Source: Antedon mediterranea
Lineage: Eukaryota; Animalia; Echinodermata
Length of the DNA: 64,000 nucleotides
Direction of reading: 5' to 3'
NCBI RefSeq assembly: GCF_964355755.1
Contig: NC_092676.1
Span: forward strand, 2,361,788-2,425,787
Shown here: positions 10,860-64,000 of the stretch, piece after piece
Layout: each line of letters starts with the position of its first letter
Numbering within the stretch: position 1 is the stretch's first letter
Notes under the pieces: model-generated
What the model was told of the DNA's origin: nothing
The model's database searches: none
What the model saw: only the letters and a program-made list of their open reading frames with translations
Program-made: the position numbers and the translations under genes

Positions 10860-25192
<14,333 letters not shown>

Positions 25193-33406: not shown

Positions 33407-35771
33407 ATGGAACTAGAATCTCCTTCATTTGAGTTTGGACACAATTCTCCCTCAGGGATGGATTACGAAAACTCTCACCAATTAGTAAATCAAGGTTGGA
33501 GGATGTCGGATGAAGAACAAGACGATCCAATCAACACAAGCCCACAAGACATTGAGGAATCGGACAATAATGACCAACAGCTGACCGATGAAGAACTGCA
33601 GATTCTTGCAGAACAGATAGCTGTTGAAAGAGAATTACAGCAGATGAAGGAGGAGGGTTATCTACCGGTGGATGATCCACCAGAATATAATGTTAGAGAT
33701 CGTATTGCTCAACTAAATGCCGAACTCGCCGCTGAAGGAACTATAGTTGACAATCGAAGACAGAGTGTTCAGTTCCGTGAAGACCCCGTCTCCGATGTAT
33801 TTCCGGTAATTTATTACGAAGATGATGATGTGGATGCGGCAGACGAGCAAGAGGTCAACAACGAAGAGGATATAGCTGATAAAGAAGTTGCGAAATTAAC
33901 GCTTGTTGATTCTATACCTGGCATTGAACGTCAGACTTTTATACAAAGGGAACAAATGCCAAAAAAATCTCTTGCCTTCGCAGAGACTAAGGAAGAAACG
34001 ACATCGAAAGAAGTCCTTGATTTACTAGATGATGAGGAGAAGGTTGTGGTTGAAAGAGAAGGAAAGTTTGAAGTTGTTGATGCTTCTGACTTGACCACAG
34101 AAGAAAGACATTTAATGGGGTTAGGCCCAGTAACAACAGAATCAACAAGTACTACTTTACCAAACATTAACAACTCCGGTTCACACTCTATTCATGAACT
34201 ACGACCTTTGAAACAGAGGCCGTCAACTGCGACATACTCTGGGAATGAAAAACCTAACAATCCGCCAACTCGTCGTATTCAATCAGCTCGTCCTGTGAAT
34301 AAAAAAACTTCTTATCAACCAATAACTGTAAAGAAAGTGGATCCGTTTCGAGATGGCACAATTTCAGATTTCGGAAATCAAAAGAGTCGTTATGGACAGA
34401 CGGACGAACAGAAAGAATATCAACGGAAAATGGCGCGGTTGAGAAGAGATCAATTACGTGAAGAAACGCAAAAAAAAGAAGAGGAAGAAAGAAGGTTAAA
34501 AAGTGATAGTGAACAAGCTTTTCACGCTTGGATGCAACAAAAACAGGAAGATACACGTGCCAAAAAAAAAATAGAAAAAGAAAAGAAAAAAAACGAGAGT
34601 GAAACCGATCCAAATAAAGTAAGTTTTATATTCATTTAGACTAATTGTAGTCAACTTAAAAAATACAGAATTTCATCATTTATCAGTAATTTACCAATCA
34701 CAACGAATTTCCATTTTGAAGTGGACTAATAAAATATCTTGAATCAGCGTTCTTTTCATTGGGTTGAAGCGTTGCTTACCACTGAATTATAAATAATTCT
34801 TCCATACTATATATAATATACCATGATGCTTGAGGATTGACCATAACCTTTGACCTTTGTCCCCATAAGACTTGACCTCCCTGGAAAGATACTGCCTGAT
34901 CATAGTAACAGAAATATATAGATTTTTTCCTTGTATCTTAATTAATATTATAATAAATTGCTTACTGTATTTATAGCCCGACCCAGACGATGTTTTTAAA
35001 AGTTGGCTACAAGGAAAAAAACGTCAATCAAATTTAGAAAAAAGGTTTCACAAGCACTTTGAGGAAGAAAATAAACAAGGCCAGCAACAAAGAAGTCGTG
35101 AAGAATGTGAAAAAACTTATAAAGCGTAAGTGCTGTAGTTAAGTTTATTCTAGAAAAATAATTCCACTTAGTCTTGGATGTTAAAATGCTTACCTGTCAA
35201 AGTTTGGTACAGTACATTTAAAACGTTATCAGGACTCCATAATAAAAGAAGAAAGAATAATGAAAGAAACGTTATCAGGACTCCATAATAAAAGAAGAAA
35301 GAACTAGAATTGAATTCGTCACTTTGACGAATTATAAGTGATCATTTTTATCATTTTAATGAAATTAACATTTCTTAAACATGCACGTATGTTAACATAC
35401 AATTGGAAAATGTTGATGTATGAAAGAAATATTGAAAACAACCCCACTTTCTCCAGAAAAATGGCTGTATATGTAAAAAATATATATACAGTATATATTA
35501 GTGTAAATCCAATTTTAAATCTGCATACAGTACTGTTACGATCTCATTATATCTTGTAAGTGCATCTCATATTTTACAATCTTCTTCTGTTTCTTTCAGA
35601 TGGGTCCGTTCCAAAAACTATCAATTACGTGAACAACAGTCCCTCAGCCGAGCACACGCACTCACGTCGAAGCACCAAATACAGCGGTCAAGGAAATCTC
35701 GGACATTGGCAAAAGCACTTCAAGTTGCTCAAACCTATAGATACACAGATTACTATGGCTATAGATTCTAA
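33407..35771 (+). CDS. CCDC181: Coiled-coil domain-containing protein 181-like (ciliary/flagellar microtubule-associated), 3 coding exons
   Basis: Exons 33407-34618, 34977-35125, 35600-35771 (GT-AG, in phase). Acidic N-terminus, VVVEREGKFEVV, repeated AFxxW-type coiled-coil motifs (AFHAWMQQK, VFKSWLQGKK, TYKAWVRSK) and C-terminal YRYTDYYGYRF. These match my recollection of CCDC181 (ILVERDGKFELL ... FRFTDHYN). A probable non-coding first exon ends near 33001. Confidence 0.82.
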
Positions 35772-44380: not shown

Positions 44381-45151
44381 GTAAGTAGAGAATTTGAAGA
44401 CAGAACAGCGCAACAGTTGTTCTGTCTGATTCTTTATTCTAAATTTATTTTATTTATATTTTTGCTTTCTGTACATGTCAAGTAATGATCAAATAACAGT
44501 TTTCTCATCGCAACTTGTACAAAGTAATTTAGAAAACTACAACTTTTTTCAATAAACATACACATCTTACAACGTACATTTATTTTTGATCACATCAGTT
44601 ATTTAAATAATTAATTTTCAGAGGTTGCAGAATACGGTAGTGGCTGCTGTTTATTTTAAATCTTAAACTCTGTCTACACAATCAAACTTTATGTGAAAAT
44701 GTGATGTGCCCATAAATTGGCATACTGATGTCATATCACTACCATATTTGGGAATATCACTACCATATTTGAGCATATCACTACCATATTTGAGCATATC
44801 ACTACCATATTTGGGCACATCACACTTTTTGTGTCAAACTAGTTTGATAGTGTAGACAGAGCTTTAGTGATATATTTTAGAACATCCATAAATTAATAGA
44901 TTGACAACTTTTCTAAAGCTTTTTACATGAACATGCTATAAGTTATTGAGTGTTTAACTGTTATAAAGGTCACTATGGGGTCATTTGTATAAAAATGGCT
45001 CGAAATTTCAAGAGGCTAAAACAAATTTGAAGAGGAGTTCATTAATTTTCATTATTTTATTTATTTACAAATTTAAATACATCAGTTATAAGTTGGTTTT
45101 CACTTTTTAAATAGTGCACAGGCATAAATTAATTTATTATTATTAATATTA

Positions 45152-47017
45152 TTATACAATTATAGGACCTTCATTTTCACATTCTTTGTAATCAATTTTA
45201 TGCACTTCAGAATAACCATGTCTATCTGTATTATGATGTTCTGTATTATTTGGTCCTTCATATATTTCGTTCTCCGTCTCTATATATGTGTCCAAGTCAT
45301 TAGTTAAATCTTGGATTTCTTTGCTGCCCTCTTGCTTATTTGTATAATGCTCATGAATATTCATGTTAGGGTGTTCATGAATATTCATATCAGGTCCTTC
45401 ATATATTTCATTTTCTGCCTCTATATATTTATCCAAGTCGTTATTTAAATCTTGGATTTCCTTGCTGTCTTCTTGTTTATTTGCATGACGAAACTTCTCA
45501 TGAATATTCATGTTAGGGTGTTCATGAATATTTATATCAGGTCCTTCATATATTTCATTCTCTGCCTCTATATATTTATCCAAGTCGTTAGTTAAATCTT
45601 GGATTTCCTTGCAGTCCTTTTGTTTAATTGCATGACGAAACTTCTCATGAATATTCATGTTAGGGTGTTCATGAATATTCATATCAGGTCCTTCATATAT
45701 TTCATTTTCATTCTCAATGTATTGATCATCATCGTTGACAACAGGAACAGTCCTATTGCCCAGTTCAGCTACGTCAGCATAGATTTGATTTTCTGTGTCC
45801 TGGAAATGAATATTTTCTGGAACATACTCGTAGATATGGCTTTGCAGATCCTGGATGTTGTCACATGGTGCTAGTTGAGTAGTGTCCTTACTTTTTGTCA
45901 TGTGATGTTTCCTCTGAAAAGCTATCACTATGGTGATAGCGACCACAACCCCTAAAAAAACTGCTCCGGAAACATAAAATATAAGGCTGTCATTTCCATC
46001 CACTTCGTTCTGATTGTTTACAATTGGAATGTTTAAAGTTTCGTTTCTTATTGAATTATTGCTTGTTATTTCCATGATTGAAAAATCTGTTGTTATTTCC
46101 GTGTTAAATTTTAGTATTTCAGTTATCTTTGAAACTACTGTGTTTAGTAAACTTTCCGTACTTAAAGTTGTAGACTCTATAGTCCAGCCTGTTACAAAAC
46201 TATTAGTCTCCTCTTGAGACGTTATAAAGGTTACATCATTGTTTAGTTCCGTTGTTGTATGTCCCATTGACGGTGTTTGTGTGACTATTACCGTCTTGTC
46301 ATAGTGTACAGTGATTGGACCTACAGAGCAATATCTAATTTCATTTGTTCCGTTTCGCCTCGATTCGCATACAAATGTTATATTATCATGTTCTTTAGTC
46401 ACATTTAAGATGTGAGTTATCATCATTTCATTAAACATGGTGTCTAACACTTGTCCGTTTGAAGTTTTCAATGTAGTTATTATATTTGAGCCATAATCGG
46501 GATAACATCCTACTGTTATTGCTGTACCAACATCAATTTCATTTTTACTAATACTTACACAAACTGGTTCATTAAATGTCCAATTCTGTATAGTAACATT
46601 TGTTGCTGTTCTTAAAATTATTTTATCTTCTTCCAAATCAAATACAGCACAATAATACTTAGTGCTTATAATTTGGGATTGCCCAAATTCTAATGATTTA
46701 ATCCCTGGAATTTCAATAAGTAGGGTAAAGTTCATTTCCTCGCCGATAATTGAAACATCTTCTGTAAAGTTTTGAATACGTCTCTGGTGTACATTTCTAT
46801 TTTCTGTAAGCGGTCTTATTTGTTTTGAGTTGGAAAGATGAAACCATTTAACGACATGTTCTTCCTCTTCCAAGCCCTCTAGTACACACGGTAGTGCAAG
46901 GACTTGCCCTGGGAAAGCAGTCAGACTCCTAGGTGGCTTTTTAACAAATTCAACATCAGCAAAGGTAGATGAAAGTAACAATAACACAATATTTACACAG
47001 ATAAATTTAATTGACAT
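45152..47017 (-). CDS. IgSF type-I membrane receptor A (signal peptide, 2 Ig-like domains, Ser/Thr-rich stalk, TM, tyrosine-repeat tail), 621 aa
   Basis: Uninterrupted ORF. Signal peptide MSIKFICVNIVLLLLSSTFA; Ig1 LPC..VKW..FTLLI..YYC; Ig2 PVC..VGC..ITFVCES..YCSVGPITV; Thr-rich stalk; TM LIFYVSGAVFLGVVVAITIVIAF followed by QRK; tail with four NEIYEGP motifs. A possible 5'UTR intron has an acceptor at 47052 and a donor near 47667. Confidence 0.88.
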   Translation of the reverse strand: MSIKFICVNIVLLLLSSTFADVEFVKKPPRSLTAFPGQVLALPCVLEGLEEEEHVVKWFHLSNSKQIRPLTENRNVHQRRIQNFTEDVSIIGEEMNFTLLIEIPGIKSLEFGQSQIISTKYYCAVFDLEEDKIILRTATNVTIQNWTFNEPVCVSISKNEIDVGTAITVGCYPDYGSNIITTLKTSNGQVLDTMFNEMMITHILNVTKEHDNITFVCESRRNGTNEIRYCSVGPITVHYDKTVIVTQTPSMGHTTTELNNDVTFITSQEETNSFVTGWTIESTTLSTESLLNTVVSKITEILKFNTEITTDFSIMEITSNNSIRNETLNIPIVNNQNEVDGNDSLIFYVSGAVFLGVVVAITIVIAFQRKHHMTKSKDTTQLAPCDNIQDLQSHIYEYVPENIHFQDTENQIYADVAELGNRTVPVVNDDDQYIENENEIYEGPDMNIHEHPNMNIHEKFRHAIKQKDCKEIQDLTNDLDKYIEAENEIYEGPDINIHEHPNMNIHEKFRHANKQEDSKEIQDLNNDLDKYIEAENEIYEGPDMNIHEHPNMNIHEHYTNKQEGSKEIQDLTNDLDTYIETENEIYEGPNNTEHHNTDRHGYSEVHKIDYKECENEGPIIV

Positions 47018-49215
47018 CTTTTCGATTTTTTCTTCAATGATGTTTACGTGTCTGAAAAAGAGAAATTATCTATCGGTATCATTCATTTAAAATATATTCA
47101 TTTTTTTTGGTAAATGGTTATAACATGAACTACAAGACTATCGGCCTAGACTATCTGCTACTGGATGTACACTATTAAAGTATATGTTGTTTTCAACAAC
47201 CCTAAAGCTCTGTTTACACTATCAAACTAGTTTGACAAAAAAGTGGGATGTGCCCAAATAAGGTAGTGATATGACATCATAATGTTCATATATGAGCACA
47301 TCACATTTTTTTGTCACATAAAGTTTGATATTGTAGACAGACCTTTATACAGTATGAGCCAACTCCAATACAACTCTGATACAAATTACCTAATCAGATA
47401 CCATAGTCAATGATATTATAGTAGATAGAAACTAACCTAACTTTTCATTTGGTCAAATTTCTGACCTAATCTATGGTCAAATATGTTAATTTATCATTAG
47501 GCATTTGAATTTGTCTGAAAATTTGTGTGATTCATTTCTTTTTAAAGAGTAATTTTAAATGGTAGCATAAATTGGGAAGAAAAAAAACACCCTCCCTGCA
47601 CTGAAATTTATTCAGAGGTTGATCTAATTAGACTTTATACCAATTTATAAATAAGTAGTTGGCCTACCTTCACTTATTCTGTTACACTGTTTACTTACAG
47701 TACGCTCCAACATGCCAACATGGGTGTTGAATTCAGAATTATTGCGTTTTAATTGTTTTCAGCGTTAGATTATTTGTGTATTACTTTCATCACTTCCTTA
47801 TCCATCGGGATATGCTACCAACTCAATATCCTCAATAAGGTGAGATCACACTAAGACCAACGTCAAACGATTTAAGAAATCGGTCAGGCGTTGCATGTCA
47901 AGAAGTTATACTTGAAGTATTCACAAAATAATATATACAAATGTTGTTTTCGTTTGATTGGTTAGTATTTTTTTAAGTTTAGCTGTTTTTGTTCACTAAG
48001 TTGTTTATTGAAAAGTAACTTTCTTTTTGTTGTTTTTTCAAAACGAAACATTACAAATGGTTTTGTTTTTGCTGAAAATAACAAACAAAATGTTTCTATC
48101 AAACTGTTTTTATTTTGAATATAAAAAGAAAGATTATAAGCTTAAATGAAGAATGAAAATATTCTGTAAAGTTGTGTGGTTGTTATAGTGCTTGATCTTT
48201 TCATAATCCAAAGTCTGTTTATTTAACAATATATTTTTTATTGTGAATATGCATTTTATACAATTATATACAAAGTCCATGATTAGCTAAGCTTTACCTT
48301 AAAGTAATGACATTGGTTACAACTTTAAGAGAAATACTTTATCATTGCCCAAAACAAAACACATTTTCAATCATTCATTTTCATCAGTAGATATATCCAT
48401 TTATTTTTATTATTTGCATAAATGTTCAATATACATAGACAATTGTGTTGCTCTGCAACAAATAAAGTGCTATGTACAATTATCTTAACAAAACGCTACA
48501 CAATTCTTATACATTAAGTTCCCTGAATTCATTATTGTTGTTAATATACATTTGCAGTACAACTATCCATGAGCCTTAAAGCTCTGTCTACACTATCAAA
48601 CTTTATGTGACAAAAAAAATGTTATGTGCCCATATATGGACATGATAATTTCATATCACTACCATATTTGGGCACATTAAACTTTTTTTGTCAAACTAGT
48701 TTGATAGTGTAGACAGAACTTTATATAGTTATATATATTTTTTCAGTATATTAAAATGCATACCACAAAGAAGGATATGGGTAATCCATGCTTCAGGAAA
48801 CTATAGAAAACTAGTATGTGACAATAGGGATTTGTTAAGATTCACTATCTATATTAAGACCATTTCAATATCATCCTATACAAAAGCATAATTTGCCTTT
48901 GTACTCTTTGTTTCTATGTAACATTCAAAGCCAAGCAACTGAAGATTGAGGTTCTCCTCATAAAACAGCCTTTAGTGCGTTATCATCTTCAAGTGAGAAC
49001 TAGAGTATTTAACTACTTATTTTTATTTTGCTCAGCATTGTATTAAACACTTTTGCCTACATGAGTTCAAGCTTATAACCTACTACTGTATATACAAAAG
49101 TATTCTCACAGGTTTACTCATCTTTATCGTTTCAATTCAAATTAAATAATTGTATATATGTATGTGTATAATAGTATATCATTGGGTGGTTTAGAATTTA
49201 TGTTCTGTGCCTGAT

Positions 49216-49252
49216 GCACTGATGAAGGGCTAGTGTTGCCCGAAAGCTCTGC
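49216..49252 (+). ncRNA. Minimal type-I hammerhead ribozyme motif (Penelope-like element type)
   Basis: GCA-CTGATGA-A-GGGC-tagtgtt-GCCC-GAA-AGCT-C-TGC: conserved core CUGAUGA/GAAA, 4-bp stem II, palindromic stem III (AGCT), cleavage after UC, and 3-bp stem I (GCA/UGC). Confidence 0.65.
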
Positions 49253-49359
49253 TAACTTTTCTGGCTGTTTTACTTCTCGTTTTTATTTAGCTTTTCGCTT
49301 TTATTTTGCATCTCCATTGAGATCCAGCCACTGATACCCACAGCATTGTCATTTTTTCA
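49217..49359 (+). mobile_element. 143-bp retro-insert (Penelope-like end or retrozyme-like) bounded by a 15-bp target-site duplication
   Basis: Direct repeat GTTCTGTGCCTGATG at 49202-49216 and 49360-49374; the insert begins at the hammerhead motif. Confidence 0.7.
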
Positions 49360-49746
49360 GTTCTGTGCCTGATGTGTTTATATATTCATAAACATATAAA
49401 CGATATACAAATATTTAATAGAAAGTTAAGTATATTAAATATAGGACCATAACTGGTCAGATAGGCATAGAGAACATTGGAGTGTGGTCCTGTATCTATG
49501 CAGGTAAATATATTTTACATTAGGTTGTTGTACCTGTTGCAGTTGTGCACTGAACTATACCAAAACTAGAATTAAATATATTATGGAAGTCCTAGCAGTT
49601 TATAGTAAGAATGCTTACATATTGTTTTAAACTGATTTCTAGTTTACATCTTGGTTAAGTTCATTCTTGCATATTTTCTCAATGTTGTTATTTTAATATT
49701 ACTTTACCGGTTGGTTTAAAGTTTCTTTCCTTTAATCAGGTATGAC

Positions 49747-51330
49747 TTACTTATCAGGACCTTGATATATTTCATTTTCACATTCTTTATAATCGCGTTT
49801 GTTCACATGTCTCTTATCTTGTGCCCATTTTGAGTTGGCTCCTCCAGTGGCACCCTCATATATTTCATTTTCACACTCCTTAAAATCTGGTTTGTTCACT
49901 TTCGAGTAAAAATGTCCTTCATCTTGTACCCCTTCCCCTTTAGAATCAGCCCCTCCCTCATATATCTCATTTTCATATTCTTTAAAATCTGGTTTGTTTA
50001 CCTTGGTGTATACATGTACCTTGTTCTTCATCTCTTCTTCATTTGAGTTAGTAGTTGGCTCTGAATAGATATCACTGTCTACACATTGGTATTCACTATC
50101 ATCAAACTTACTTTGTTTGTTTTTCACGTTCTTTCTCACTTCACTCTCGTTTTCATAGACTTGATCGCCAACGTCCTGAAAATCCTCTTGAAACTCATAT
50201 TCTGTCACATGATAAGCAACATTTCTTGTATCTTCACTTTTAGAGTTAATCTTCAACATAGATGCCTTGTTACGTTTTCGTTTTAAGCAAAATATGAACG
50301 TTATTATTGCAAGTACACTACATGTTGACAGTGCAATCACAATAATTATTATTGAAGTATAAACTGCGCTATTACTTGATATTATCAATGATTTTGTTTC
50401 TTTTCCAATATTGTTTTCAGCTTCACATGTTATTTTTATATCTGTGTCATCTTTTGTTAGTTTTAGAATATTGTTAGAAATTGTGTAAAGTTCAGTAATA
50501 TTAGGCTCCACAATCCAGACTGTTTCATTAACAGGTGGTCTAGCCTCTGCTGTACAGTTATATTCCAGTGGTGATATTTTTGTGATGGTAATCTCTGGTT
50601 TGTAGTTGACAGTGATTGGACCTTTTGAGCAATTTCTCATTTCATTTGTCCCAATTTTTTGAGATTCACAAATATAAATTGCATTGTTATCTTCTTTTGT
50701 TACATTTTTTTTATGGTAAAGAGTTGAGGATATTGAGTATGATGGCAAGATTTTTCCTGTTCCAGATTTTAAATTTGTCAATATGTCTGGACTAAAATCA
50801 GCAAAACACCCAAAACCTAAAGTTTGTCCAGATGTATAAATTGTCACATTGAATAAACAAATTGGTTTAATAAATGTAAATTTCTGAATTATCACATTTG
50901 AAATGTTTGAGCTAATTATTGGATTATTATTATTATTAATATTAGCTGATTTTCTAAATACAAAACACTGAAATTCTTCTGTAATAGTGTCATCATCTTT
51001 AAAATCAATCTTGTTTCTTTCTGGTATAATAATATGTAGAGTAAAGTTATTGTCCTCACCAAGGAGAGAGAATTGCAAGTTGTCAATAGTTGTTTCATAT
51101 AGGTCTCTGTTGTTGGATATAATTGTTGGGTTAATTCCTTGTATTTTAGCCCAAATGACTCTGTGTATAGTGGTGTGGTAGTTGTTCAATACACATGGCA
51201 GAGTAACATTTTGTCCTGGAAATGTCCTGACTTCTGTTGGTGGCGTAACTTCAAACTCAACAACAAATGCGAATGAAGACTTTATAAACAACAAAATAGG
51301 TATCCACACAATGCAAGTGTTTTTGTACAT
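49747..51330 (-). CDS. IgSF type-I membrane receptor B (3 Ig-like domains, TM, tyrosine-motif tail), about 527 aa
   Basis: The ORF track gives 49747..51456; the likely start is the ATG at 51330, which opens the signal peptide MYKNTCIVWIPILLFIKSSFA. Three Cys-bounded Ig-like domains, TM IIIIVIALSTCSVLAIITFIFC-LKRKR, and a tail with VYEN, IYSEP, HVYTKV, HFYSKV and three ENEIY[EQ]G. Confidence 0.88.
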   Translation of the reverse strand: MYKNTCIVWIPILLFIKSSFAFVVEFEVTPPTEVRTFPGQNVTLPCVLNNYHTTIHRVIWAKIQGINPTIISNNRDLYETTIDNLQFSLLGEDNNFTLHIIIPERNKIDFKDDDTITEEFQCFVFRKSANINNNNNPIISSNISNVIIQKFTFIKPICLFNVTIYTSGQTLGFGCFADFSPDILTNLKSGTGKILPSYSISSTLYHKKNVTKEDNNAIYICESQKIGTNEMRNCSKGPITVNYKPEITITKISPLEYNCTAEARPPVNETVWIVEPNITELYTISNNILKLTKDDTDIKITCEAENNIGKETKSLIISSNSAVYTSIIIIVIALSTCSVLAIITFIFCLKRKRNKASMLKINSKSEDTRNVAYHVTEYEFQEDFQDVGDQVYENESEVRKNVKNKQSKFDDSEYQCVDSDIYSEPTTNSNEEEMKNKVHVYTKVNKPDFKEYENEIYEGGADSKGEGVQDEGHFYSKVNKPDFKECENEIYEGATGGANSKWAQDKRHVNKRDYKECENEIYQGPDK

Positions 51331-53034
51331 CTTGATAGATTTAAAAAACAACAAATTCCTGTTCATTAATGTTTGAAAAGATTTCTTGCAGATAATGAAG
51401 TAATAATAATAATGAAGTAATTGATTGTTCTCACAGTATGTTCTTGTACTATCCAACTATGCACATCCCCAGTTGCATTGCAGTTATATAGTTCATGATT
51501 GCAATAACTTTATATTCTTGTCCAATTGAGCATTTTACCAGTTACTTTCCAGTTATAAGTTTTTAATACAACAGCTCTAAAAGAACCAATTCTGTACCTC
51601 TCTCATGCTCTAGCAGTAATGTATCCAGCAGCAGCATTGATCTTTACAGAAGTTATTTATTTTACCACTTACCACATAAAATGTCTTCTTACTTGATGTA
51701 TGTTTTTCCAGTCATTTGATTCATGATAACTACTTTCAAGTTTACAGGAAAGTAGTTCCTATTGTTGTGTACAACTATTATACAATCTGTTTTATATTGT
51801 GTATTGGTATCTTTCCTTTATAGTCATAATTTTGACCTTTTAATCCACCACCTATACAATCACTGACTTCCTGTTTCACTCTGATAATTCCGCTCTGCAG
51901 TGCTTTGTACCACGTACACATATAGAAAAGAATTTTAATATAGTGAATTCTGAAAAACTAGAATTGTTGAAGGTCACTAATTTTTCAAAAGCATTCTGAT
52001 AAAAACCAGTGGCCGTATTCACCAATCACACTTAAGTGAGATATTTCCCTTAATTCCTAAGAATTTCCCTTAAATCAAGAAAATATTAAGGGTTTCACTT
52101 AAGTGGTATTCACAAAGGGTTTAAGGTTAAGGGAATCCCTTAACTTGGTCTATTTTAGTTGTGCTGACGATTGTGTATGTGCGAGTACTATGCCTTGGCC
52201 CCAGTCTAGGCTAGGTAGAGATGCTAAGCCCCCTGTTGGTGTGCCCAGTAACCAGCCTAGGATTCATGTTTGGTTTGAGTAGCATCTAGACTAAGCCTAG
52301 ACCTTTTTTGCTGATCCTCACCATACAAATTAGTCTAGGCCTATGTATTCATTTATTTGTTTTTGTTTTGACTGCCATTATTTTCGTGGAATAGAAATTA
52401 GCCCCAGTCTAGTAGGCTAGGTAGAGATGCTAGGCCCCTTGTAACCAGCCTAGGATGCATATGTCTCAATACAGACAAGTTTTGGCCTACACAGAATGTT
52501 GGTTATACACAAGATGCTCTACATAAACAAAGTCTTTTTACAAGTCTTTTGGAGTGGAGTTGTAATTTGTCATTTGACATATGACAGGACTTGAACCCAG
52601 GACCCTTGAATTGGTAGCCAAGCATCAAACCACCAAGCCACAACTCCATAACAATCATACCACAACAATATTAAGGAAGTGACACAATAAACAATATACA
52701 CATTTGTTTATCTACAGTACTGTACAGTATTTTATTGAAGAACAAGAAAACTTTTTTTACATTTTGCTACATAAATTAATAATAATATTTTAAAAAAATT
52801 AAAAACAATATAACCATTTAAACATTCATAAGCATGTATGTTATGTCTGTGTTTCTATTTATAGCCTATTACATAATTAGTTATTTTTATATCATGCTAA
52901 ATCATGACCTTGTAGAAGAACACACCACTTCCTGATGTCAGCTATTCTGTGTCTAAGTATTATATTATTAATGTTGACTTAATATTTATATATTTGAACA
53001 GCAAAAGCATCATTTTTACAATATTATATTATTT

Positions 53035-53894
53035 AGACTTATATTATTTAGTTTTAATGCAATTTCAATTTATTTATTCAAATATCGAAGCACAATAAAA
53101 AAAGCAAGAATGGTTATTGTATACAGGGAAATCGTAACATGATATAAACATTACAGAAGTACATCCTACTGAAAAGCAAAAATGGAATTTTAACATTTCT
53201 TACATTTAACATGCGTTACAAATCCATATACTACATAATGATATTATGATTATAGAATATTAATAGGCCTTCTGTATAACATTAAGGACCTTGATGTTCA
53301 AGACTTATATTATTTAGTTTTAATGCAATTTCAATTTATTTATTCAAATATCGAAGCACAATTTCAAATTATTATTTAGTTTTAATGCAATTTCAATTTA
53401 TTTATTCAAATATCGAAGCACAATAAAAAAAGCAAGAATGGTTATTGTATACAGGCAAATCGTAACATGATATAAACATTACAGAAGTACATCCTACTGA
53501 AAAGCAAAAATGGAATTTTAACATTTCTTACATTTAACATGCGTTACAAATCCATATACTACATAATGATATTATGATTATAGAATATTAATAGGCCTTC
53601 TGTATAACATTAAGGACCTTGATGTTCAAGACTTATATTATTTAGTTTTAATGCAATTTCAATTTATTTATTCAAATATCGAAGCACAATAAAAAAAGCA
53701 AGAATGGTTATTGTATACAGGCAAATCGTAACATGATATAAACATTACAGAAGTACATCCTACTGAAAAGCAAAAATGGAATTTTAACATTTCTTACATT
53801 TAACATGCGTTACAAATCCATATACTACATAATGATATTATGATTATAGAATATTAATAGGCCTTCTGTATAACATTAAGGACCTTGATGTTCA
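53035..53894. repeat. Tandem triplication of a 266-bp unit covering the last codons, stop and 3' flank of gene C
   Basis: Units 53035-53300, 53301-53628 (with an internal ~62-bp extra) and 53629-53894, each ending in taaggaccttgatgttca. Confidence 0.92.
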
Positions 53895-55336
53895 TTTTCA
53901 CACTCCTTGTTATCGAGTTTGTTTAATACAAAATAAAGATGTGCTTCATCTTGTACCCCTTCCTCTTTATAATCCATCCCTTCATTGGCACCCTCATGTA
54001 TCTCATTTTTAGAATCAGCCCCTCCAGTGGCACCCTCATGTATCTCATTTTTAGAATCATCCCCTCTAGTGGCACCCTCATGTATCTCATTTTTAGAATC
54101 ATCCCCTCCAGTGGCACCCTCATGTATATCATTTTTAGAATCGGCCCCTCCAGTGGCACCCTCATGTATCTCATTTTTAGAATCATCCCCTCCAGTTGGA
54201 CCCTCATATATCTCATTTTCACATTCCTTAAAATCTGGTTTGTTTACTTTGGAATATACATGTACCTTATTCTGTATGTGTTTTTCATTTGCGTTAGTAA
54301 TTGGTTCTGAATAGATTCCATCGTCATTGTCTATGCATTGGTATTCACTATCGTCAAATTTAGTTTCAACATTATTACTTATTTTACTCTCATTTTGATA
54401 GAATTGTTCACCAATTTCCTGATAATCCACTTGTGACACATCTTCTGTCACCTTAAAACCAACAGTTTTTGTATCTTCATTTTTAGAGTTAATCGTCGAC
54501 ATAGCTGCTTTTTTATGTTTTCGTTTTAAGCAAAATATGAACGTTGTTATTGCAAGAACACAAAATGTTAACAGTACAATCACAATGATCATTATTGAAG
54601 TATTTGCACCATTACTTTCATTGTCATTGTTTAATGGTTTGTAGTTGACAGTGATTGGGCCAACAGAGCAACTTTTTTTTTCATTTGTTCCAATTATTTG
54701 TGATTCACAAATATAAATTGCATTATTGTCTTCTTCTGTTACAATAAATGTGTGGTAAAGAGTTGATGATTCTACATATGAAGGCAAGATTTGTCCTTTT
54801 CCTGATTTCAAATTTGTTTGTATGTCTGAATTAGAATCAGCAAAACAGCCAAAAGTTAATGTTTGTCCAGATGTATAAACAGTCTCATTAAGTAAACAAA
54901 TTGGCTTATTAAATGTAGATTGATTAATTGTCACTTTTGACATAGCTTTGAATATCATATTTTCATTCTGTTTACTAGTTACAGAACACTGAAATAATTT
55001 TGTAATAGTGTCGTCATCCTCAAAATCAATCAAGTTGCTTTCTGGTATAACAATATGTAGAGTAAAGTTATTGTCCTCACCAAGGATTGAGAATTGCAAG
55101 TTGTCAAAAATCCGGATTATGCGTTCTCTATCTTGTGTAATTACTTCTTTTTTGTTGTTATTATTTGTCCTTATGGAAAACCAAATAACTTTTTGGTCTG
55201 TATAATTGTTTGCTATGACACATGGCAGTGTAACATTTTGTCCAGGGTATGCTGTTACTTCTTCTGGTGGTTTAACGTCAAACTGTGCTGCAACAAATGA
55301 TATAAATAACAAAACAAGTAAACTCACAATAGACAT
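53876..55336 (-). CDS. IgSF type-I membrane receptor C (2 Ig-like domains, B-type TM/tail with 14-aa repeats), 486 aa
   Basis: Uninterrupted ORF. Signal peptide MSIVSLLVLLFISFVAA, then Ig1 and Ig2 but no Ig3. TM and tail are homologous to gene B. A 42-bp repeat array encodes SKNEIHEGATGGxD. Confidence 0.88.
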   Translation of the reverse strand: MSIVSLLVLLFISFVAAQFDVKPPEEVTAYPGQNVTLPCVIANNYTDQKVIWFSIRTNNNNKKEVITQDRERIIRIFDNLQFSILGEDNNFTLHIVIPESNLIDFEDDDTITKLFQCSVTSKQNENMIFKAMSKVTINQSTFNKPICLLNETVYTSGQTLTFGCFADSNSDIQTNLKSGKGQILPSYVESSTLYHTFIVTEEDNNAIYICESQIIGTNEKKSCSVGPITVNYKPLNNDNESNGANTSIMIIVIVLLTFCVLAITTFIFCLKRKHKKAAMSTINSKNEDTKTVGFKVTEDVSQVDYQEIGEQFYQNESKISNNVETKFDDSEYQCIDNDDGIYSEPITNANEKHIQNKVHVYSKVNKPDFKECENEIYEGPTGGDDSKNEIHEGATGGADSKNDIHEGATGGDDSKNEIHEGATRGDDSKNEIHEGATGGADSKNEIHEGANEGMDYKEEGVQDEAHLYFVLNKLDNKECENEHQGP

Positions 55337-56090
55337 CTTGTAGTACTAAAATATTTTCCAGTTATAACAGGTTTCAAATTGTTGTATCAACTTTATATTC
55401 TTGTGCTATCCAGCTAAGTAGTTTCTTTCCAGTTGTAACAAATTCTGAATTGTTGTATCAACTTTATATTCTGTCCAGCTAAGTATTTTTTATTAGCTTT
55501 TCTTCCACAACTTTTGATAAAATAAATATGATCCGAATGCTTGATTTATGTTCCCTTGAAGACAACTAGATTTAGTAACCTATCGTCTGTCTTTAATACT
55601 TGTTATAATAACCCATGTAGGTTGTTGATCCTCAGCACAACTTGTTATGTTTCCTTTTATTCTGTTTTTACAAGATCTTTCTTGTTAGTAACATCATAGA
55701 TATTGATATAACAATATCCTGTATTACTTACAATTCCTGTTATTCTTATATCACCACATTCACACCTAGTTTTACTATTAATAAGAATTTATCAGTATAC
55801 CAGTGATGCATTGTGGGATTTTTTTCATGACTTCCTATATTAAAACTAAAGATATTAATTTTTCAAAATTTATCCTTATTTTAATTTGTGACATTAAATT
55901 CAATGACTATATCAAATTGTTGTAAATTAATTATCATCTTGGTTATAATAAACATAACATGTGGGACTGTATCTTGATGGTTTAATAACATGCTTGCTTT
56001 CCATAAGGTGTTTGGTTCAAACCTGCCAGGGTTGTAACTTATCACCTGTGATCTTAGATTTTTAATTCCTTCCTGAAATTGATTTTTGTT
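55337..56090. repeat. Duplicated upstream region of gene C (near-identical to the gene D upstream region 59454-60170; partial copies at about 61398-61630 and 62600-62706)
   Basis: Direct sequence match by eye, for example ttgtagtactaaaatattttccagttataacagg...gatccgaatgcttga...gttgttgatcctcagcacaacttg...attcacacctagttttac. Confidence 0.9.
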
Positions 56091-57347
56091 TTGCAATGAT
56101 TGTTTTCAGCTATTTTGTCAATAAACATTCTTTATGTATTAATGTTTGGTTTGTAGCTGATATTTTTGTTCTAGACTAAATCGTTCGGAATTTGTTATAG
56201 AGATACTTTGTTTTTTGAACGGAGTGAAAATAGAAAAGATTTTAAATTTTGGTTTTCTTTGTTGTCAGTATATCGGACTTCAACCACTGTACATTATTTA
56301 TATGTCAGATTTTATTATGTTTTAGGGAAAAATACTTCTTCCGTGACTATAAGGAAGAGAAAAAAAAAATTCATACGGTAGTGCAATAACATAAAATAAG
56401 GAGTGGTTGCGGTATTTTTTGTAATAAATGCTCCTTTTGTTTGACTATATACAAGGAAGGGAAAAAATAATATATTCATAGTGCAGTAACATAAAAAAGG
56501 ATTTGATTGCGATATTTTTGTAAGAATAAATTCTTGTTTTGTATGATTATACAAGGAAGGAAACACAAAACGAATGCATAGCACAAATTCAAAGAAGGGA
56601 GTGTTTTTTAAATAATTCATAAATAAATACATATACTGTACTCATTTTATTGTTGATCAGACAAAAAGGCATTGCAACAAATACGATATTGAAGTGATAC
56701 AAATTATAGCTAAATCTTAAAAGTGTATTGCTTGTGAGAAGTTTAAAAAAATGTTTGATAACGATGAGCTGCAGTTTATTTCATTTAGATTCAATTTATA
56801 AAAAATTCAATTAATAATAAAATAAGTTTTTGTTAAATTAATACAAATATTATTTACAGTTTCTATACATCTTACTTCTTAATGTATATGCCAACTCTCC
56901 CAACACCAGGATGAGGATCTTAAGGTTCAAATGATATTACATTCTTTTCCACTATGGGAAATACATTCTGAAAACCAAACATTTTTCCAGCAGACGAGCA
57001 TGTCCATTATTGAGCATAATTTATTATTATTAAACAATATGTATAACACTAATTTTAAACTCGGTATTATTAAAGTTATTCAAATACTGTGTTATTTTAG
57101 AGATTCCAACTTTACATAACTTTTATCATCTGATGATGTATTTTAAAATATCACTATTTCTTTAATTATTCTGTACATAGAACACATTTTGAAATGTTCA
57201 TTGGATTGGCAAGTAGCAATATTTTTCAAAAACAGTTATTAAAGTGTTTTAAAGAAGAGTTGTATCAATGCATGTTTAATATGCTGTGAGATACAGTATT
57301 CAAATGTTTATTCTTAAAGTTTTTACAGCATTTGTATAGTTGTCATT

Positions 57348-59453
57348 TTAATTATTGGCACAATGTCTACTAGGTGTGGATGTGTTTTCTACACTCAGAT
57401 CAGCAACATGTTTTGTGACATCTTCTTTGTCATCAATGATTTCTAGATATGGTTCATCATCACATTCAGTTCCTGTAGGTTGTTGTGGTTTCCTTACGTG
57501 AGGATTATTGGCATAATATCCACTAGATGTGGATGTGTTTTCAACACTCAGATCAGCAACATGTTTTGTGACATTGTCTTTGTCATCAATGATTTCCAGA
57601 TATAGTTCACCATCACATTCAGTTCCTGTAGGTTGTTGTGGTTTCCTTACGTGAGGATTATTGGCACAATCTCTACTAGGTGTGGATGTGTTTTCTACAC
57701 TCAGATCAGCAACATGTTTTGTGACATCTTCTTTGTCATCAATGATTTCCAGATATAGTTCATCATCACATTCAGTTCCTGTAGGTTGTTGTGGTTTCCT
57801 TACGTGAGGATTATTGGCACAATCTCTACTAGGTGTGGATGTGTTTTCTACACTCAGACCAGCAACATGTTTTGTGGCATCTTCTTTGTCATCAATGATT
57901 TCCAGATATGGTTCCTCTTCACATCCAGGTTCTTTAAGTTGTTGTTTCCTGACACAAGGATTATTCACATAAACTGCACTAGGTGCGGATGTGTTTCTTA
58001 CACTCAGATCAGGAATAACACCACATTTTGTGTCGTCTACATTTTCATCATTGATTTTAAGATATTGTTTATCATATGCAGATCCTGTGGGTTGTTGCCC
58101 TGTATTATTAGATGTACTTGCTAAAATCTTTTTGTCATCTTGTTTTCCGTTAATAATTTCAATGTAAGGTTCATCACATACAGTCTCTTGTTGCCATGTG
58201 AGTTCACCATCAATAGTGGTTATGTATGCTGATGTATCTGGATTGATCCCTATGTCAATTGGTGGAATAGTTTCATAAGCTGTTGCCTTTTCATTTCCTG
58301 AATGATTTTGTCTGATAAGTTCTTCTGGTGCGTTGTTTTGATCTTGTCCTCTACCACTCCCCTCGACTATGACTGTGTCATCATATTCAGTATTAATGTT
58401 TTGTTCCTTTTTATATTTATAGTAGCAAAGCACAGTTGCAACAATGATGATAAAAGTTAAAACAACGCATAATAGGATCTTATAAATTCTGGCACTGATT
58501 GATTCTTCATCATTATTGTTTAACAATGGAATTATAATTGACTTGGAATCTTTTCCCAAAATATTCTCTGCTTCACACGTTATGTCAGAACCAAACTTTG
58601 GCAATTTAATAAATTTCAAAATCCCATTTGAAATAGTAAAGTGATCTTCTGGAACACTAGATTTCACAATCCAGACTGTTTCATTAACTGATGGTCTAGC
58701 CTCTGCAATACAGTGGTATTCCAGTGGATTCACTTGTATGATGTTAATCTCTGGTTTATAGTTGACAGTGATTGGGCCTACAGAGCAATTTCTTGTTTCA
58801 TTTGTCCCAATTATTTGTGATTCACAAATATAAATAGCATTATTATCTTCTTTTTGTACAGTAAATGTATGATAGGAAATGAATGATTCTAAAGATGTCG
58901 GCAAGATTTGTCCTTTTCCTGATTTCCAATTTGTATTAATGTTGTCACCATCAGATTGTGAAAGACATTGAAAGGTTACAATTTGTCCAGATGTAAACAT
59001 AGTCTCATTAGATAAACAAGTTGGCTTATTGAATTTATGAATTATCACTTTGGAATTAGCATTTAATAACATATTGTTATCGCCTTGTTTACTAGTTACT
59101 GAACACTGAAATGGTTCTGTAATAGTGTCATCATCTCCAAAATCAATCTTGTTTCTTTCTGGTATAATAATATGTAAAGTAAAGTTATTGTCCTCACCAA
59201 GGAGAGAGAATTGCAAGTTGTCCAAAATCTGGATTATGCGTTCTCTATCTTGTGTAATTACTTCTTTTTTGTTGTTATTATTTGTCCTCATGGAAAGCCA
59301 AATTACTTTTTGATCTGTATAATTGTTTGCTATGACACATGGCAGTGTAACATTCTGTCCAGGGTATGCTGTTACTTCTTCTGGTGGTTTAATCTCAAAC
59401 TGTGCTGAAACAAATGATATCAATAACAAAACAAGTAAACTCACAATAGACAT
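57348..59453 (-). CDS. IgSF type-I membrane receptor D (3 Ig-like domains, distinct TM/tail with 51-aa repeats), 701 aa
   Basis: Uninterrupted ORF. The N-terminus is nearly identical to gene C and Ig3 is homologous to gene B. TM is ILLCVVLTFIIIVATVLC-YYKYKK. The tail has EPYIEI, VYVNN and four 153-bp repeats carrying E[PL]YLEI. Confidence 0.88.
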   Translation of the reverse strand: MSIVSLLVLLLISFVSAQFEIKPPEEVTAYPGQNVTLPCVIANNYTDQKVIWLSMRTNNNNKKEVITQDRERIIQILDNLQFSLLGEDNNFTLHIIIPERNKIDFGDDDTITEPFQCSVTSKQGDNNMLLNANSKVIIHKFNKPTCLSNETMFTSGQIVTFQCLSQSDGDNINTNWKSGKGQILPTSLESFISYHTFTVQKEDNNAIYICESQIIGTNETRNCSVGPITVNYKPEINIIQVNPLEYHCIAEARPSVNETVWIVKSSVPEDHFTISNGILKFIKLPKFGSDITCEAENILGKDSKSIIIPLLNNNDEESISARIYKILLCVVLTFIIIVATVLCYYKYKKEQNINTEYDDTVIVEGSGRGQDQNNAPEELIRQNHSGNEKATAYETIPPIDIGINPDTSAYITTIDGELTWQQETVCDEPYIEIINGKQDDKKILASTSNNTGQQPTGSAYDKQYLKINDENVDDTKCGVIPDLSVRNTSAPSAVYVNNPCVRKQQLKEPGCEEEPYLEIIDDKEDATKHVAGLSVENTSTPSRDCANNPHVRKPQQPTGTECDDELYLEIIDDKEDVTKHVADLSVENTSTPSRDCANNPHVRKPQQPTGTECDGELYLEIIDDKDNVTKHVADLSVENTSTSSGYYANNPHVRKPQQPTGTECDDEPYLEIIDDKEDVTKHVADLSVENTSTPSRHCANN

Positions 59454-60533: not shown

Positions 60534-60846
60534 ATATCTTGTTACGCTATGTGTAACACCTTGTTATACTATGTGTAACGAACGTGTAACATCTTGTTAC
60601 GCTATGTGTAACATCTTGTTACGCTATGTGTAACATCTTGTTACGCTATGTGTAACATCTTGTTACGCTATGTGTAACATCTTGTTACGCTATGTGTAAC
60701 ATCTTGTTACGCTATGTGTAACATCTTGTTACGCTATGTGTAACATCTTGTTACGCTATGTGTAACATCTTGTTACGCTATGTGTAACATCTTGTTACGC
60801 TATGTGTAACATCTTGTTACGCTATGTGTAACATCTTGTTACGCTA
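60534..60846. repeat. 22-bp minisatellite with an internal palindrome (GTAACA-tct-TGTTAC), about 12 perfect plus 2 degenerate units
   Basis: Unit GCTATGTGTAACATCTTGTTAC, period 22 (60601, 60623, 60645 ...). Confidence 0.95.
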
Positions 60847-61213
60847 TTCCTCTTCTTTCAGCAACAATGGTATCGTCATAGTCCAGCTTTTCATCATCTC
60901 TTAATATTTGATTATCTCTTCTGACATTTTCTTCTGGTACTTGGTATCCATCTTCCTGTCTTCCTCTTCTCTCAGTGGCTTGATTTCTCTTATACTTGCA
61001 GTAGCAAAGCACAATTGCAACAACAATAAAAACAGTTCCAAAAACACTTGAGAGGATAAAGTAAACTATAGGTATATCACTGTCAGACTCGGTTTTTATT
61101 TCTTTCTCCTTTTTGTTGAACAATGAAATGATCGATGACATTGATTTTTCTGCGAATGAAGACTCTATGAACAACAAAATCGGTATCCACACAATGCAAG
61201 AGTTTTTGAACAT
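60839..61213 (-). CDS. Ig-less derivative E of the receptor family (B-type signal peptide, short stalk, D-like TM, truncated tail); possibly a pseudogene
   Basis: The ATG at 61213 gives MFKNSCIVWIPILLFIESSFA (near-identical to gene B), then about 25 polar residues, TM IPIVYFILSSVFGTVFIVVAIVLC-YCKYKR and a tail with GYQVP and DYDDTIV (gene D has EYDDTVI). The stop codon lies in the adjacent 22-bp minisatellite. Confidence 0.6.
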   Translation of the reverse strand: MFKNSCIVWIPILLFIESSFAEKSMSSIISLFNKKEKEIKTESDSDIPIVYFILSSVFGTVFIVVAIVLCYCKYKRNQATERRGRQEDGYQVPEENVRRDNQILRDDEKLDYDDTIVAERRGIA

Positions 61214-62009
61214 CTTGATAGATTTAAAAAACAACAAATTCCTGTTCATTAATGTTTGAAAAGATTTCTTGCAGATAATGTAATAATAATAATTATAGTA
61301 AGTATTTGATTGTTCTTATATTCCTGTACTTCCAATTATGCACATCCCCAGTTGCATTGCAGTTATATAGTTCATGATAACTTTATATTCTTGTCCAATG
61401 CTTGATTTATGTTCCTTAGAAGACAACTAGATTTAGTAAAATATCGTCTGCCTGTAATACATTGTTATAATATAACCCATGTAGGTTGTTGATCCTGAAT
61501 ACCTAGTCAGAAGAATTTGTTATGTTTCCTTTTATTCTGTATTACTTAGCTAATTCCTGTTATTCTTATACCACATTCACACCTAGTTTTACTATTAATA
61601 AGAACCAGTGATGCATTGTGGGATTTTTCAAGGCTTCATGATAGTTATTTGAAAAGAAAATTTAATTAAAATTAATGAAAAGTATTGCACAGAAGAGTTA
61701 CAACAACCAAGAGAACAAAATAATATCCACAATTACCAAATTTAATTTGTTATTAAAACTATTAAAATTATCTCTAACACTGTTTTAGTTAGGCTATTAT
61801 ACACATAGCACAGGTATTTCAATATTTATTCAGTTAATTTGTTGAGTGTAGACGGCCAGATGTAGGATTTGATTGTAGAGTGCATTTGATAATTTGCACA
61901 CCTAGATTCTTTTTTTTCTTAGTTTTCCAAAAACCAAACATGTTCCTGGAATGCAGTAACTGTGTGATGGTTGAATATTTCTTTTATTCTATATTTATAC
62001 AGTACATGA

Positions 62010-62286: not shown

Positions 62287-62413
62287 TCCTCATATATCTC
62301 ATTTTCACACTCCTTGTAATCTGGTTTGTTCACTTTGGAGTAAACTTCCTCTTTAGAATCAGCCCCTCCAGAAAAATGAAATATATGAGGTCCCCCTCGT
62401 GTATCTCATTTTG
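62287..62413 (-). pseudogene. Relic fragment of a B/C-type receptor tail
   Basis: The reverse strand reads GGADSKEEVYSKVNKPDYKECENEIYE and QNEIHEG, separated by a short inverted NEIYE segment. No TM or ectodomain is adjacent. Confidence 0.72.
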
Positions 62414-63565
62414 TAATGCAACGATTTATTGCCTGTTAGAAGTTGTTTAAAAATGTAAATTCAATTTTACTAAAATACAAATTTTAATATAAACTAGATA
62501 GCTAAGAACTTTATAATTTCTTGTTTATTGTTTCAAAGTTAAAATAATAACTGTACTCACAACTTCAATTGTAATATTATATAACATTTTTAATTGTTTA
62601 TTACAAGATCTTTCTTGTCAGTAACATCACAGATATTGATATAACAATATCCTGTAGTACTTAACTTATTCCTGTTATTCTTATACCACCACATTCACAC
62701 CTAGTTTGACATAATAACTGAGACAACAACTAAAAGAGATTCGCAAGGCATGTCGGCTCTTTTGATCTTCGATTTACCTCTTAGTGAATACATTGTTATG
62801 CAAATTATGTTTTTGCTCGAAAATAGCCCAAGTGGGCGCCATGATATCAACAGTTTGCCATGTAGTGTGTCATTTTGTAATGGTTAACTAAAAACACCAG
62901 TTGAGAGCTTCGCAATTTCAATAAAAGACACTTTGGTGTAATATTAATGAAATTTATTATGATAGAATAACTATTTTTCTGTGTTTCGAAAGTAATTTTT
63001 AATATATGTGATTAAATAATGATTATTTTACTGATTTTATAGTTTTCGCTGAATGCACACTCCTTAAATCGTATCATATTTAGAAAAAAATCTCTATCGT
63101 ATTTATGATATTGTATCACTTTATTAATAGCTAAATATGTAAATTTTGTATTTTATTTTTCATTTGAAAAAGAAATACTCTATGTATTTACTCAATATTT
63201 TTTGTGCAAGTAAAGTAGGCAAACATGTCAGCCTTTTTAGCTACAATCTACGCATTTGGTGGTCAATTTAAAGTCAACCTTGATTTTACGAATCCCATGT
63301 TTTACGTACTTCTTTCAGTCCCGTACCATACGTAAAATAAAGGTTGTACTGTAGTTTTAAGGTGTTTTAAAGAAGACTTGTATCAATGAATGTTTAACAT
63401 ATTGTAAGATGCAGTATTCAAATGTTTATTCTAGCTTTTACTACAACATTTACATGGTTGCCATTTTTAATTTGCGTCAATTTTTGCTTTCTGGCAAAAG
63501 CATTGTTGAAACTAAAACTCTACAGTACTAGGAACTTTAATGTCATCTTGTTATCTTCATAAATG

Positions 63566-64000
63566 TTATGTAGTTGTATGTTTTTGTTTCCTGACACGAG
63601 GATTATTCACATAAACTGTACTAGGTGTGGATGTGTTTTTAACATCAACATGTTTTGTGCCATCCTCTTTGTCATCAATAATTTCTATATAAGGTTCATC
63701 ACAAACAGTTCCCGTAGGCTGTTGTTTCCTGACACAAGGATTATTTACATAAACTGCACTAGGTGCAGATGTGTTTCTTGCACTCAGATCAGGAATAACA
63801 CCACATTTTGTGTCGTCTACATTTTCATCAAAGATTTTAAGATATTGTTTATCATGTGCAGATCCTGTGGGTTGGTCTGTATTATTAGACGTGCTTGCTA
63901 AACTTTTGTCATCTTGTTTTCCATTAATAATTTTAATGTAAGGCTCTTCATATACAGTCTCTTGTTGCCATGCCAACCTACCATCAATAGTACTCATATA
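63566..64000 (-). CDS. 3' end (cytoplasmic tail) of receptor F, paralogue of D; gene continues beyond the window
   Basis: The frame is open to the window edge. The translation aligns closely with the gene D tail (WQQETV.EPYI.IINGKQDDK..TKCGVIPDLS.RNTSAPSAVYVNNPCVRKQQ). The downstream flank 63360-63470 resembles the gene D flank 57243-57349. Confidence 0.8.
   Translation of the reverse strand, partial: YMSTIDGRLAWQQETVYEEPYIKIINGKQDDKSLASTSNNTDQPTGSAHDKQYLKIFDENVDDTKCGVIPDLSARNTSAPSAVYVNNPCVRKQQPTGTVCDEPYIEIIDDKEDGTKHVDVKNTSTPSTVYVNNPRVRKQKHTTT

Follow-up and report, generated by a model that had tools for sequence, protein, structure and literature searches.

The window analyzed here, a stretch of 64,000 nucleotides from the crinoid Antedon mediterranea (contig NC_092676.1, positions 2,361,788 to 2,425,787), consists of animal DNA with a GC content near 31% and zero N, and contains a cluster of genes for immunoglobulin (Ig)-type receptors. 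Genes A to D are tandem single-pass receptor genes on the minus strand, as are the further copies, tail arrays and deletion junction described with them, and each consists of an open reading frame (ORF) that is unbroken from signal peptide to stop. Gene A (45152-47017, 621 aa) encodes a signal peptide, a V-like Ig1, a four-Cys Ig2, a degenerate third domain, a transmembrane (TM) segment at approximately residues 345-368, and a class I tail. Gene B (49747-51330, 527 aa) has a signal peptide, three Ig domains, a TM segment at approximately residues 327-350, and a class I tail. Gene D (57348-59453, 701 aa) has the same order of parts, with the TM segment at approximately residues 326-349, and a class II tail; its 5' part falls beyond the interval 45245..57960 that an earlier reading, made from the letters alone, had outlined (the sequence-only reading). 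Gene C (53876-55336, 486 aa) is a chimera, with D-like upstream DNA, signal peptide and Ig1, a mixed Ig2, and a B-like TM segment followed by a class I tail.

Three further pieces sit upstream of genes A to D. Gene E (60839-61213, 124 aa), likely degenerate, has B-like upstream DNA and signal peptide, lacks Ig domains, and continues with a D-type TM segment and a short class II tail. A frameshifted class I tail remnant (62289-62410) carries its own His-type unit adjoining a Tyr-type terminal module. Of gene F only the 3' end is present (63566-64000, running off the window); its class II tail shows a complete D-type unit followed by an incomplete one. The two tail classes of the family are old and barely alignable, class I being marked by ENEIY and YxxV, and class II by acidic-YLEI resembling the motif called hemITAM (a hemi version of the immunoreceptor tyrosine-based activation motif); each is also present in a protein from outside the window.

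Exchange of heads and tails between copies

Comparison of the copies indicates that heads and tails have been swapped between them, the head of gene C being D-like and its tail B-like, while gene E starts like B and has a membrane segment like that of D. Genes C and D are 96.5% identical over the 200 bp upstream, 96% in the signal peptide and 90% in Ig1, while the TM segment and tail of C are 82.6% identical to B and 40.7% to D. Gene E is 95.2% identical to B upstream and 92% in the signal peptide, and its TM segment and tail are 59% identical to D, against 42-45%. Informative sites at which C agrees with D or with B are distributed 98:14 over residues 1-140, 31:33 over residues 141-234, and 31:148 over residues 235-350.

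The same change of affinity is seen in trees, from both of which the homologues P0005 and P0006 were left out. The tree of heads (8 rows) groups B, C, and D with support of 100/100 and C with D with 100/99, while that of TM segments and tails (9 rows) groups B with C (99/97) and D with E and the homologue P0004 (97/98). The approximately unbiased test rejects the grouping of D with P0004 on heads (p 0.0004), and that of C with D on tails (p 0.0003). Related heads are found joined to different tail classes by recombination, as in paired receptor families. Both C and E have deletions close to their junctions; they are the likelier recombinants.

In gene C the deletion has removed Ig3 in frame, and sequence comparison among the copies places its junction at 54617-54640 (approximately 54635). 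Contigs 54548-54719 and 54548-54726, from runs X6 and X9, span this junction. These two runs belong to one study with a second organism label, and run X1, which may be the source sample, is not independent. The bridging of the junction in contigs of a second organism argues against misassembly. In gene E the frame stops on entering a 22-bp minisatellite of 12 identical copies (60584-60847), and its tail ends in this out-of-frame array. DNA that is 83-90% like the C/D upstream region is found at 61397-61628, further upstream of E, and at 62588-62710, before the remnant, which makes the 5' region of E mosaic in its own right.

Tandem arrays in the receptor tails

The in-frame tandem repeats announced by the sequence-only reading are confirmed by Tandem Repeats Finder (TRF) periods of 147, 42, and 153 and by a self-match in gene B; all of them lie after the membrane segment of genes A to D, and every coding period is a multiple of three. 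Their placement in cytoplasmic tails is likewise borne out, and the tails are predicted to be disordered: the full-length model of B has one TM helix, and its residues 355-527 have a predicted local distance difference test (pLDDT) score below 50.

The ancestral class I tail, as seen in the relatives, has two or three ENEIY-based modules, the terminal one being YxxV...YKECENEIYQG. Gene A amplified the middle module. Its array (45248-45721; TRF period 147 x3.1, score 742) has a 49-aa unit in which the expected YIExENEIYEGP was found four times, with eight of eight Tyr kept and a ratio of non-synonymous to synonymous rates (dN/dS) of approximately 0.26. Within it lies a Tyr-less inner repeat of 8 aa with IHE (45351-45696), which has approximately 62% DNA identity to the IYE core by hand count and was presumably derived from it. 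Gene B gave no TRF row, and its array was recognized from the self-match (70.6%, E 5e-18) as three diverged copies of the terminal module (49750-50016), with Y[TS]KV ... ENEIY[EQ]G at distances of 34 and 35 aa. The motif proposed for this gene, HxY[TS]KV...ENEIYEG, is complete in two of three units, but the third is without the HxY[TS]KV part. The long-unit duplication of the last module, including its junction, is common to B and C, so that amplification separate in each gene holds for the different modules of A, B/C, and D but not between B and C.

The short array of gene C (TRF period 42 x6.0, score 415) is nested inside the duplication shared with B. The 42-bp (14-aa) repeats described for it are there, but the five added units (53978-54187) bring no Tyr motif: the parent module has the codon TAT (Tyr) and each of the added units CAT (His), giving 70 residues gained and zero Tyr. 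These units are thus a spacer with no phosphotyrosine sites, and the tail of C has 8 Tyr in 216 aa versus 12 in 178 aa for B. For this reason, the proposal that all four arrays add phosphotyrosine is ruled out, and the multiplication of phosphotyrosine-type motifs stands for A, B, and D but not for C. Genes A and C have lost the final Tyr that the terminal module had in its ancestral form, a residue kept in five of the seven proteins compared (A, B, C, P0001-P0003, and P0006). The His version of the IYE core occurs at three places (the inner repeat of A, the array of C, and the remnant near 62400), each time as a short-period neighbor of a Tyr module.

Gene D amplified a module of the other class, which is single in P0004 and present in about one and a half copies in F. 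Its array (57351-58012; TRF period 153 x4.3, score 1065) has the reported 51-aa unit with acidic-x-YLEI in four of four units. The block Y-L-E-I-I-D-D-K is invariant in all four, while 25 of 51 columns vary; it was picked after inspection, and most of the variation comes from the edge unit. A second invariant block of 8 residues is Tyr-free. The Grb2-type YxN of D has its Tyr at two of five homologous positions, and Cys stands at the other three. The D tail has 10 Cys in all. It also has five YxE[IL], a motif found in five of seven distant relatives that have the narrow ectodomain signature and a TM segment (0.3 expected).

Class I modules were counted through the anchor N-[EQDI]-I, which does not use Tyr, giving 24 modules in 7 proteins. 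Tyr follows the anchor in 19 of them, and the five exceptions are the added units of C. Among the 19, position +1 varies (Glu in 9, Gln in 5, others in 5) and Pro at +3 is found in 8. Acidic-Ile-Tyr fits the substrate preference of Src/Abl kinases, and Pro at +3 is the residue of Crk-type SH2 ligands; with 8 of 19, the latter does not hold as the general feature that it had been taken for. The acidic-Ile-Tyr side thus varies less than the side that SH2 domains would read.

The sequence-only reading had also described the Tyr spacings as not those of canonical immunoreceptor tyrosine-based activation or inhibition motifs (ITAM, ITIM). The tails of A to F indeed contain no ITAM, and a canonical ITAM receptor was rejected as a candidate, but a hemITAM-like fit had been passed over. 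With the definition [ED][ED][ED]xYxxL given in PMC12582321, strict matches are zero, and three of the four D units fit with Ile replacing Leu.

Ectodomains, relatives and surrounding DNA

The Pfam Ig profile scores above its cut-off in C and D and below it in B, and the V-set profile above cut-off only in D. Gene A gave no Pfam Ig match, and its assignment to the Ig type rests on alignment to B-D together with profile matches. The B- and F-strand Cys, the core Trp, the signal peptide and one TM segment that mark single-pass proteins of the Ig superfamily are all found, in A by alignment. The third domain of A is Ser/Thr-rich and has lost both Cys. The ectodomains have dN/dS of 0.44-0.55; they are intact, purifying selection acts on them, and no positive selection is seen at the level of whole domains.

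The AlphaFold model of the B ectodomain (from 9 sequences) shows three beta domains at a pLDDT of 88.5. By fold it comes closest to nectin-like 5, IgLON, nectin-1, SIRP, and MAG, with 14-17% identity and TM scores (a structural-similarity measure) below 0.5; a sequence search of the PDB gave nothing under E 0.06. Nectins carry a C-terminal afadin-binding E/A-x-Y-V end, and a nectin was rejected given that the ends here are PIIV, GPDK, HQGP, and CANN. The V domain of Siglec/CD22 proteins is without the canonical F-strand Cys and has a sialic-acid Arg; this candidate was ruled out, since the B-/F-strand Cys pair is kept in Ig1 of A-D. The homologue P0001 shows a feature likeness of 0.94-0.96 to CD22/Siglec clusters, which is a likeness of features and no homology. 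An adaptor-coupled receptor with a charged TM segment was rejected as well: the TM segments of A-D have no charged residue, and no adaptor coupling is apparent.

The nearest named relatives are Anneissia japonica proteins with 36-43% identity and one Antedon mediterranea protein. The closest crinoid kin (LOC117108902, LOC117108957, LOC117115573, and LOC117115572 from Anneissia japonica, and XP_071955963.1 from Antedon mediterranea) are 32-47% identical and have the common Ig signature and class I tail modules; they differ in having two or three such modules without tail arrays, and are uncharacterized. The profile search gave 323 proteins with E up to 0.001, of which the best 150 were examined and 30 named. 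Beyond the family, the named matches are Ig proteins of crinoids, sea urchins, brittle stars, sea cucumbers, and hemichordates, often annotated kirre-like or CADM-like. The four-Cys pattern of Ig2 is found in 75 of 151 collected proteins and in A-D. A quick tree of 44 rows, built from A-D and the pattern-bearing matches up to P0075 of at most 1100 aa (P0003, P0005, and P0010, which do not have the pattern, were excluded), places the eight family rows on one side of a branch with an SH-like approximate likelihood ratio test (SH-aLRT) support of 100. A metagenome scan showed no relative among 47 pattern matches. The proteins P0012-P0066 form a second, larger echinoderm kirre-like group, with at least 6 members from Antedon, a PxVY[FY]EP..D motif and a W-R...QVP tail motif. 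Within a literature search to which most subscription journals were external, no description was found of a diversified crinoid Ig receptor family with Tyr-motif tails.

Read contigs from four runs were compared over the window; X5, which may or may not be RNA, covers intergenic DNA and was set aside. Over parts of B and D, the depths of the contigs add up to several times that of unique contigs. The 42-bp array of C is left out by single contigs with depths of 172 and 178, while long unique contigs have depths of 12-28 (X1) and approximately 20-54 (X6); this hints at more copies without the array, although depth is no copy number. Among the contigs listed, none runs across a whole array. One X1 contig omits exactly 5x42 bp of the C array (depth 15, shorter side 32 bases), which an allele, a paralogue or an effect of the assembly graph could each explain. 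The last codons of C and its 3' flank are covered by a tandem triplication of 266/328 bp (53035-53894, 99.6-100% identical), either a recent duplication or an assembly artefact.

Away from the receptor genes, a palindromic dispersed element of approximately 150 bp with a 21-bp core, by inference resembling a miniature inverted-repeat transposable element, is found at 47200-47350, 48575-48730, 44650-44870, and more than 10 other sites, with very high read-contig depth in all four runs. Its core also forms a 69-copy array at 6665-8151. Exons at 21462-21746 and 31248-31541 resemble those of an RSK-type kinase and a peroxiredoxin, and an ORF of 413 aa (33398-34636) has no convincing Pfam match.

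Readings of the cluster and comparison with known systems

The reading that we favor, and consider probable, is that of a crinoid family of Ig receptors whose copies have exchanged heads and tails, whose tails likely signal via phosphotyrosine, and which has diversified through unequal crossing-over along the lines of paired receptors. Ligand binding would cluster the receptors, and the acidic-I/P/L-Tyr sites along the disordered tail would be phosphorylated by Src/Abl-type kinases. Class I tails would then be read by SH2 proteins via ENEIY-x-G and YxxV, and class II tails via the hemITAM-like acidic-YLEI and YxN. Unequal crossing-over and slippage in the cluster would create new head-tail pairs and new motif numbers, and receptors with similar heads would thereby differ in output, much as paired immune receptors do. 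The number of repeats would be one variable among several, and partly neutral. Should this reading be right, the chances of a role in immunity or self-recognition are about even.

A number of observations weigh against it. In the tail tree D lies on a long branch, and the class II outgroup is one protein, P0004. The dN/dS of Ig1 between C and D is 0.5, a domain average that lends no support to positive selection or an arms race. Relatives with similar heads include adhesion-type proteins (the KirrelL group). Conservation of Tyr relative to its neighbors, which the sequence-only reading had offered as its own test, gave a divided answer: positions +1 and +3 are less well kept than Tyr, but Gly+2, present in 22 of 24 modules, is kept at least as well, and so is the Cys of the terminal module, found in seven of seven proteins against five of seven for the last Tyr. 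The role of this cytoplasmic Cys can be guessed at as lipidation or redox. Motif scans used 1000 shuffles per tail, with repeats inflating the shuffle p-values. The ITAM pattern Yxx[LI]x6-12Yxx[LI], of which tails A-F had zero, was found once in the Antedon protein P0006, and the strict ITIM pattern [ILVS]xYxx[ILV] once in B (p 0.21), twice in C (p 0.012), and in neither A nor D, the conserved YxxV/L sites having His, Gln or Tyr at -2. Finally, the kinases and SH2 partners named here are putative, and the expression, phosphorylation, binding and ligand that the favored reading calls for are predictions.

The alternative that survives best, possible though on balance somewhat improbable, is that the arrays are largely neutral products of slippage in a repeat-prone genome, tolerated since the tails are disordered and the units in frame. 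The window has 53 TRF rows, most of them non-coding, and the out-of-frame array that closes the E tail and the Tyr-free second block of D are in line with such an origin. Substitutions among units, counted approximately by our own procedure, show no synonymous excess in D (6 synonymous versus 40 non-synonymous, with no overall constraint; p 0.96) or in C (1 versus 6; p 0.82). On the other hand, the units of A have 9 synonymous versus 12 non-synonymous substitutions over 46 columns (p 0.003-0.007) and are under purifying selection. Moreover, all four arrays start from Tyr-module sequence, and YLEIIDDK, even as a block chosen post hoc, stays invariant amid varying columns. Were the arrays neutral, the cluster would be one of Ig genes that evolve fast in an ordinary way.

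That each gene separately amplified phosphotyrosine motifs, with repeat number selected to tune SH2 valency, as the sequence-only reading had inferred, now seems doubtful. Genes A, B, and D have gained Tyr motifs over their relatives, which have two or three class I modules or one class II module, and the constraint on the A units agrees with this proposal. There is also precedent: CagA repeat number is tied to SHP2 binding, and Tarp has ENIYE repeats of approximately 50 aa (PMC3593179). Nonetheless, the five added units of C are Tyr-less, B and C share one duplication, the D units have dN/dS of approximately 1 or above, and A and C have lost the terminal Tyr. Tail Tyr density is no higher than in the relatives, at 3.7-6.7% versus 4.8-6.8% in three class I Anneissia proteins. 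Adaptive tuning of valency is plausible for A, may or may not apply to B and D, and is excluded for C as originally stated, where the array could at most change spacing.

It is unlikely that the genes encode KirrelL-like proteins for adhesion or fusion, acting in skeleton-forming or regenerating cells with tails coupled to actin rather than to immunity. In every echinoderm examined kirrelL is without introns, and skeletogenic cell fusion requires it (PMC8903837); like it, the present family has no coding intron, going by unbroken ORFs in the DNA, and has three Ig domains, a TM segment and a multi-Cys Ig2 (by eye for KirrelL). Many distant matches are annotated 'kin of IRRE-like' or CADM-like, and the top fold matches are nectin-like. 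Against this, KirrelL is a conserved skeletogenic fusion gene, while the present cluster consists of tandem copies that include chimeras and losses and differ in their tails, and the family forms its own clade, separate from kirre-like matches (22-26% identity) in the 44-row tree, which KirrelL itself is outside of. Two short literal KirrelL motifs gave zero matches among 157 collected proteins.

A cluster of decaying duplicates, or in part an assembly artefact, is very improbable: E and the remnant at 62.3 kb are broken and the triplication at the 3' end of C is nearly perfect, but four ORFs of 486-701 aa are intact with ectodomain dN/dS near 0.5, the units differ mutually by 0-16%, the C junction is bridged in contigs of a second organism, and intact relatives exist in two named crinoids.

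Returning to the favored reading, a bolder form of it is a crinoid paired-receptor immune system of coding-intronless genes, in which DNA recombination alone mixes heads with two opposing tail classes, and signal strength is reset by adding, in tandem, either phosphotyrosine units or silent spacers in which His has replaced Tyr, with differences between individuals. We think this improbable in its entirety; if true, the crinoid system would be the host-side counterpart of repeat tuning in bacterial EPIYA effectors. The four tails also offer a natural series, Tyr arrays versus a His array, for motif number versus spacing in SH2 output.

The p130Cas substrate domain is a comparable repeat array. 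A Tyr in every unit, as in arrays of the Cas, CagA, and Tarp kind, is found in A, in D, and in the ENEIY of B, and in zero of five added units of C. The likeness to the bacterial effectors extends to disordered tandem units with an acidic-Ile-Tyr core, the ENIYE of Tarp in approximately 50 aa (PMC3593179) resembling the ENEIYE of A in 49 aa. It is an analogy only, given that A-D are host membrane receptors and one array is Tyr-less.

The known immune receptor families of echinoderms are mainly of the TLR, NLR, SRCR, and Transformer types. Dog CEACAM1 and CEACAM28 have similar ligand-binding heads with different tails via recombination or conversion (PMC2110893); compared with these, the C and D heads, at 83% identity in Ig1, are not near-identical, and there is no canonical ITAM/ITIM pair. 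Botryllus FcoR and Hydractinia Alr are receptors of the Ig type that, as here, lie in clusters in an invertebrate genome and vary in their Tyr motifs (PMC12582321 and PMC9546547). In FcoR there are hemITAM and core motifs of the YxxV type, the core-2 pairs being spaced by 29-33 residues (PMC12582321), and the two YxxV sites of B are 34 apart. Each Alr domain has its own exon, and FcoR motifs are switched by alleles and splicing (PMC12582321 and PMC9546547), whereas A-D are unbroken ORFs whose tails appear to be altered by DNA recombination and tandem amplification; the likeness would lie in the way they work, no homology is claimed, and the crinoid genes are not known to be linked to allorecognition. 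If the crinoid genes encode receptors for immunity or self-recognition, they would be an independent case beside Alr, FcoR, and the vertebrate paired receptors, reached by a distinct route, that of recombination within unbroken ORFs instead of exon shuffling or splicing.

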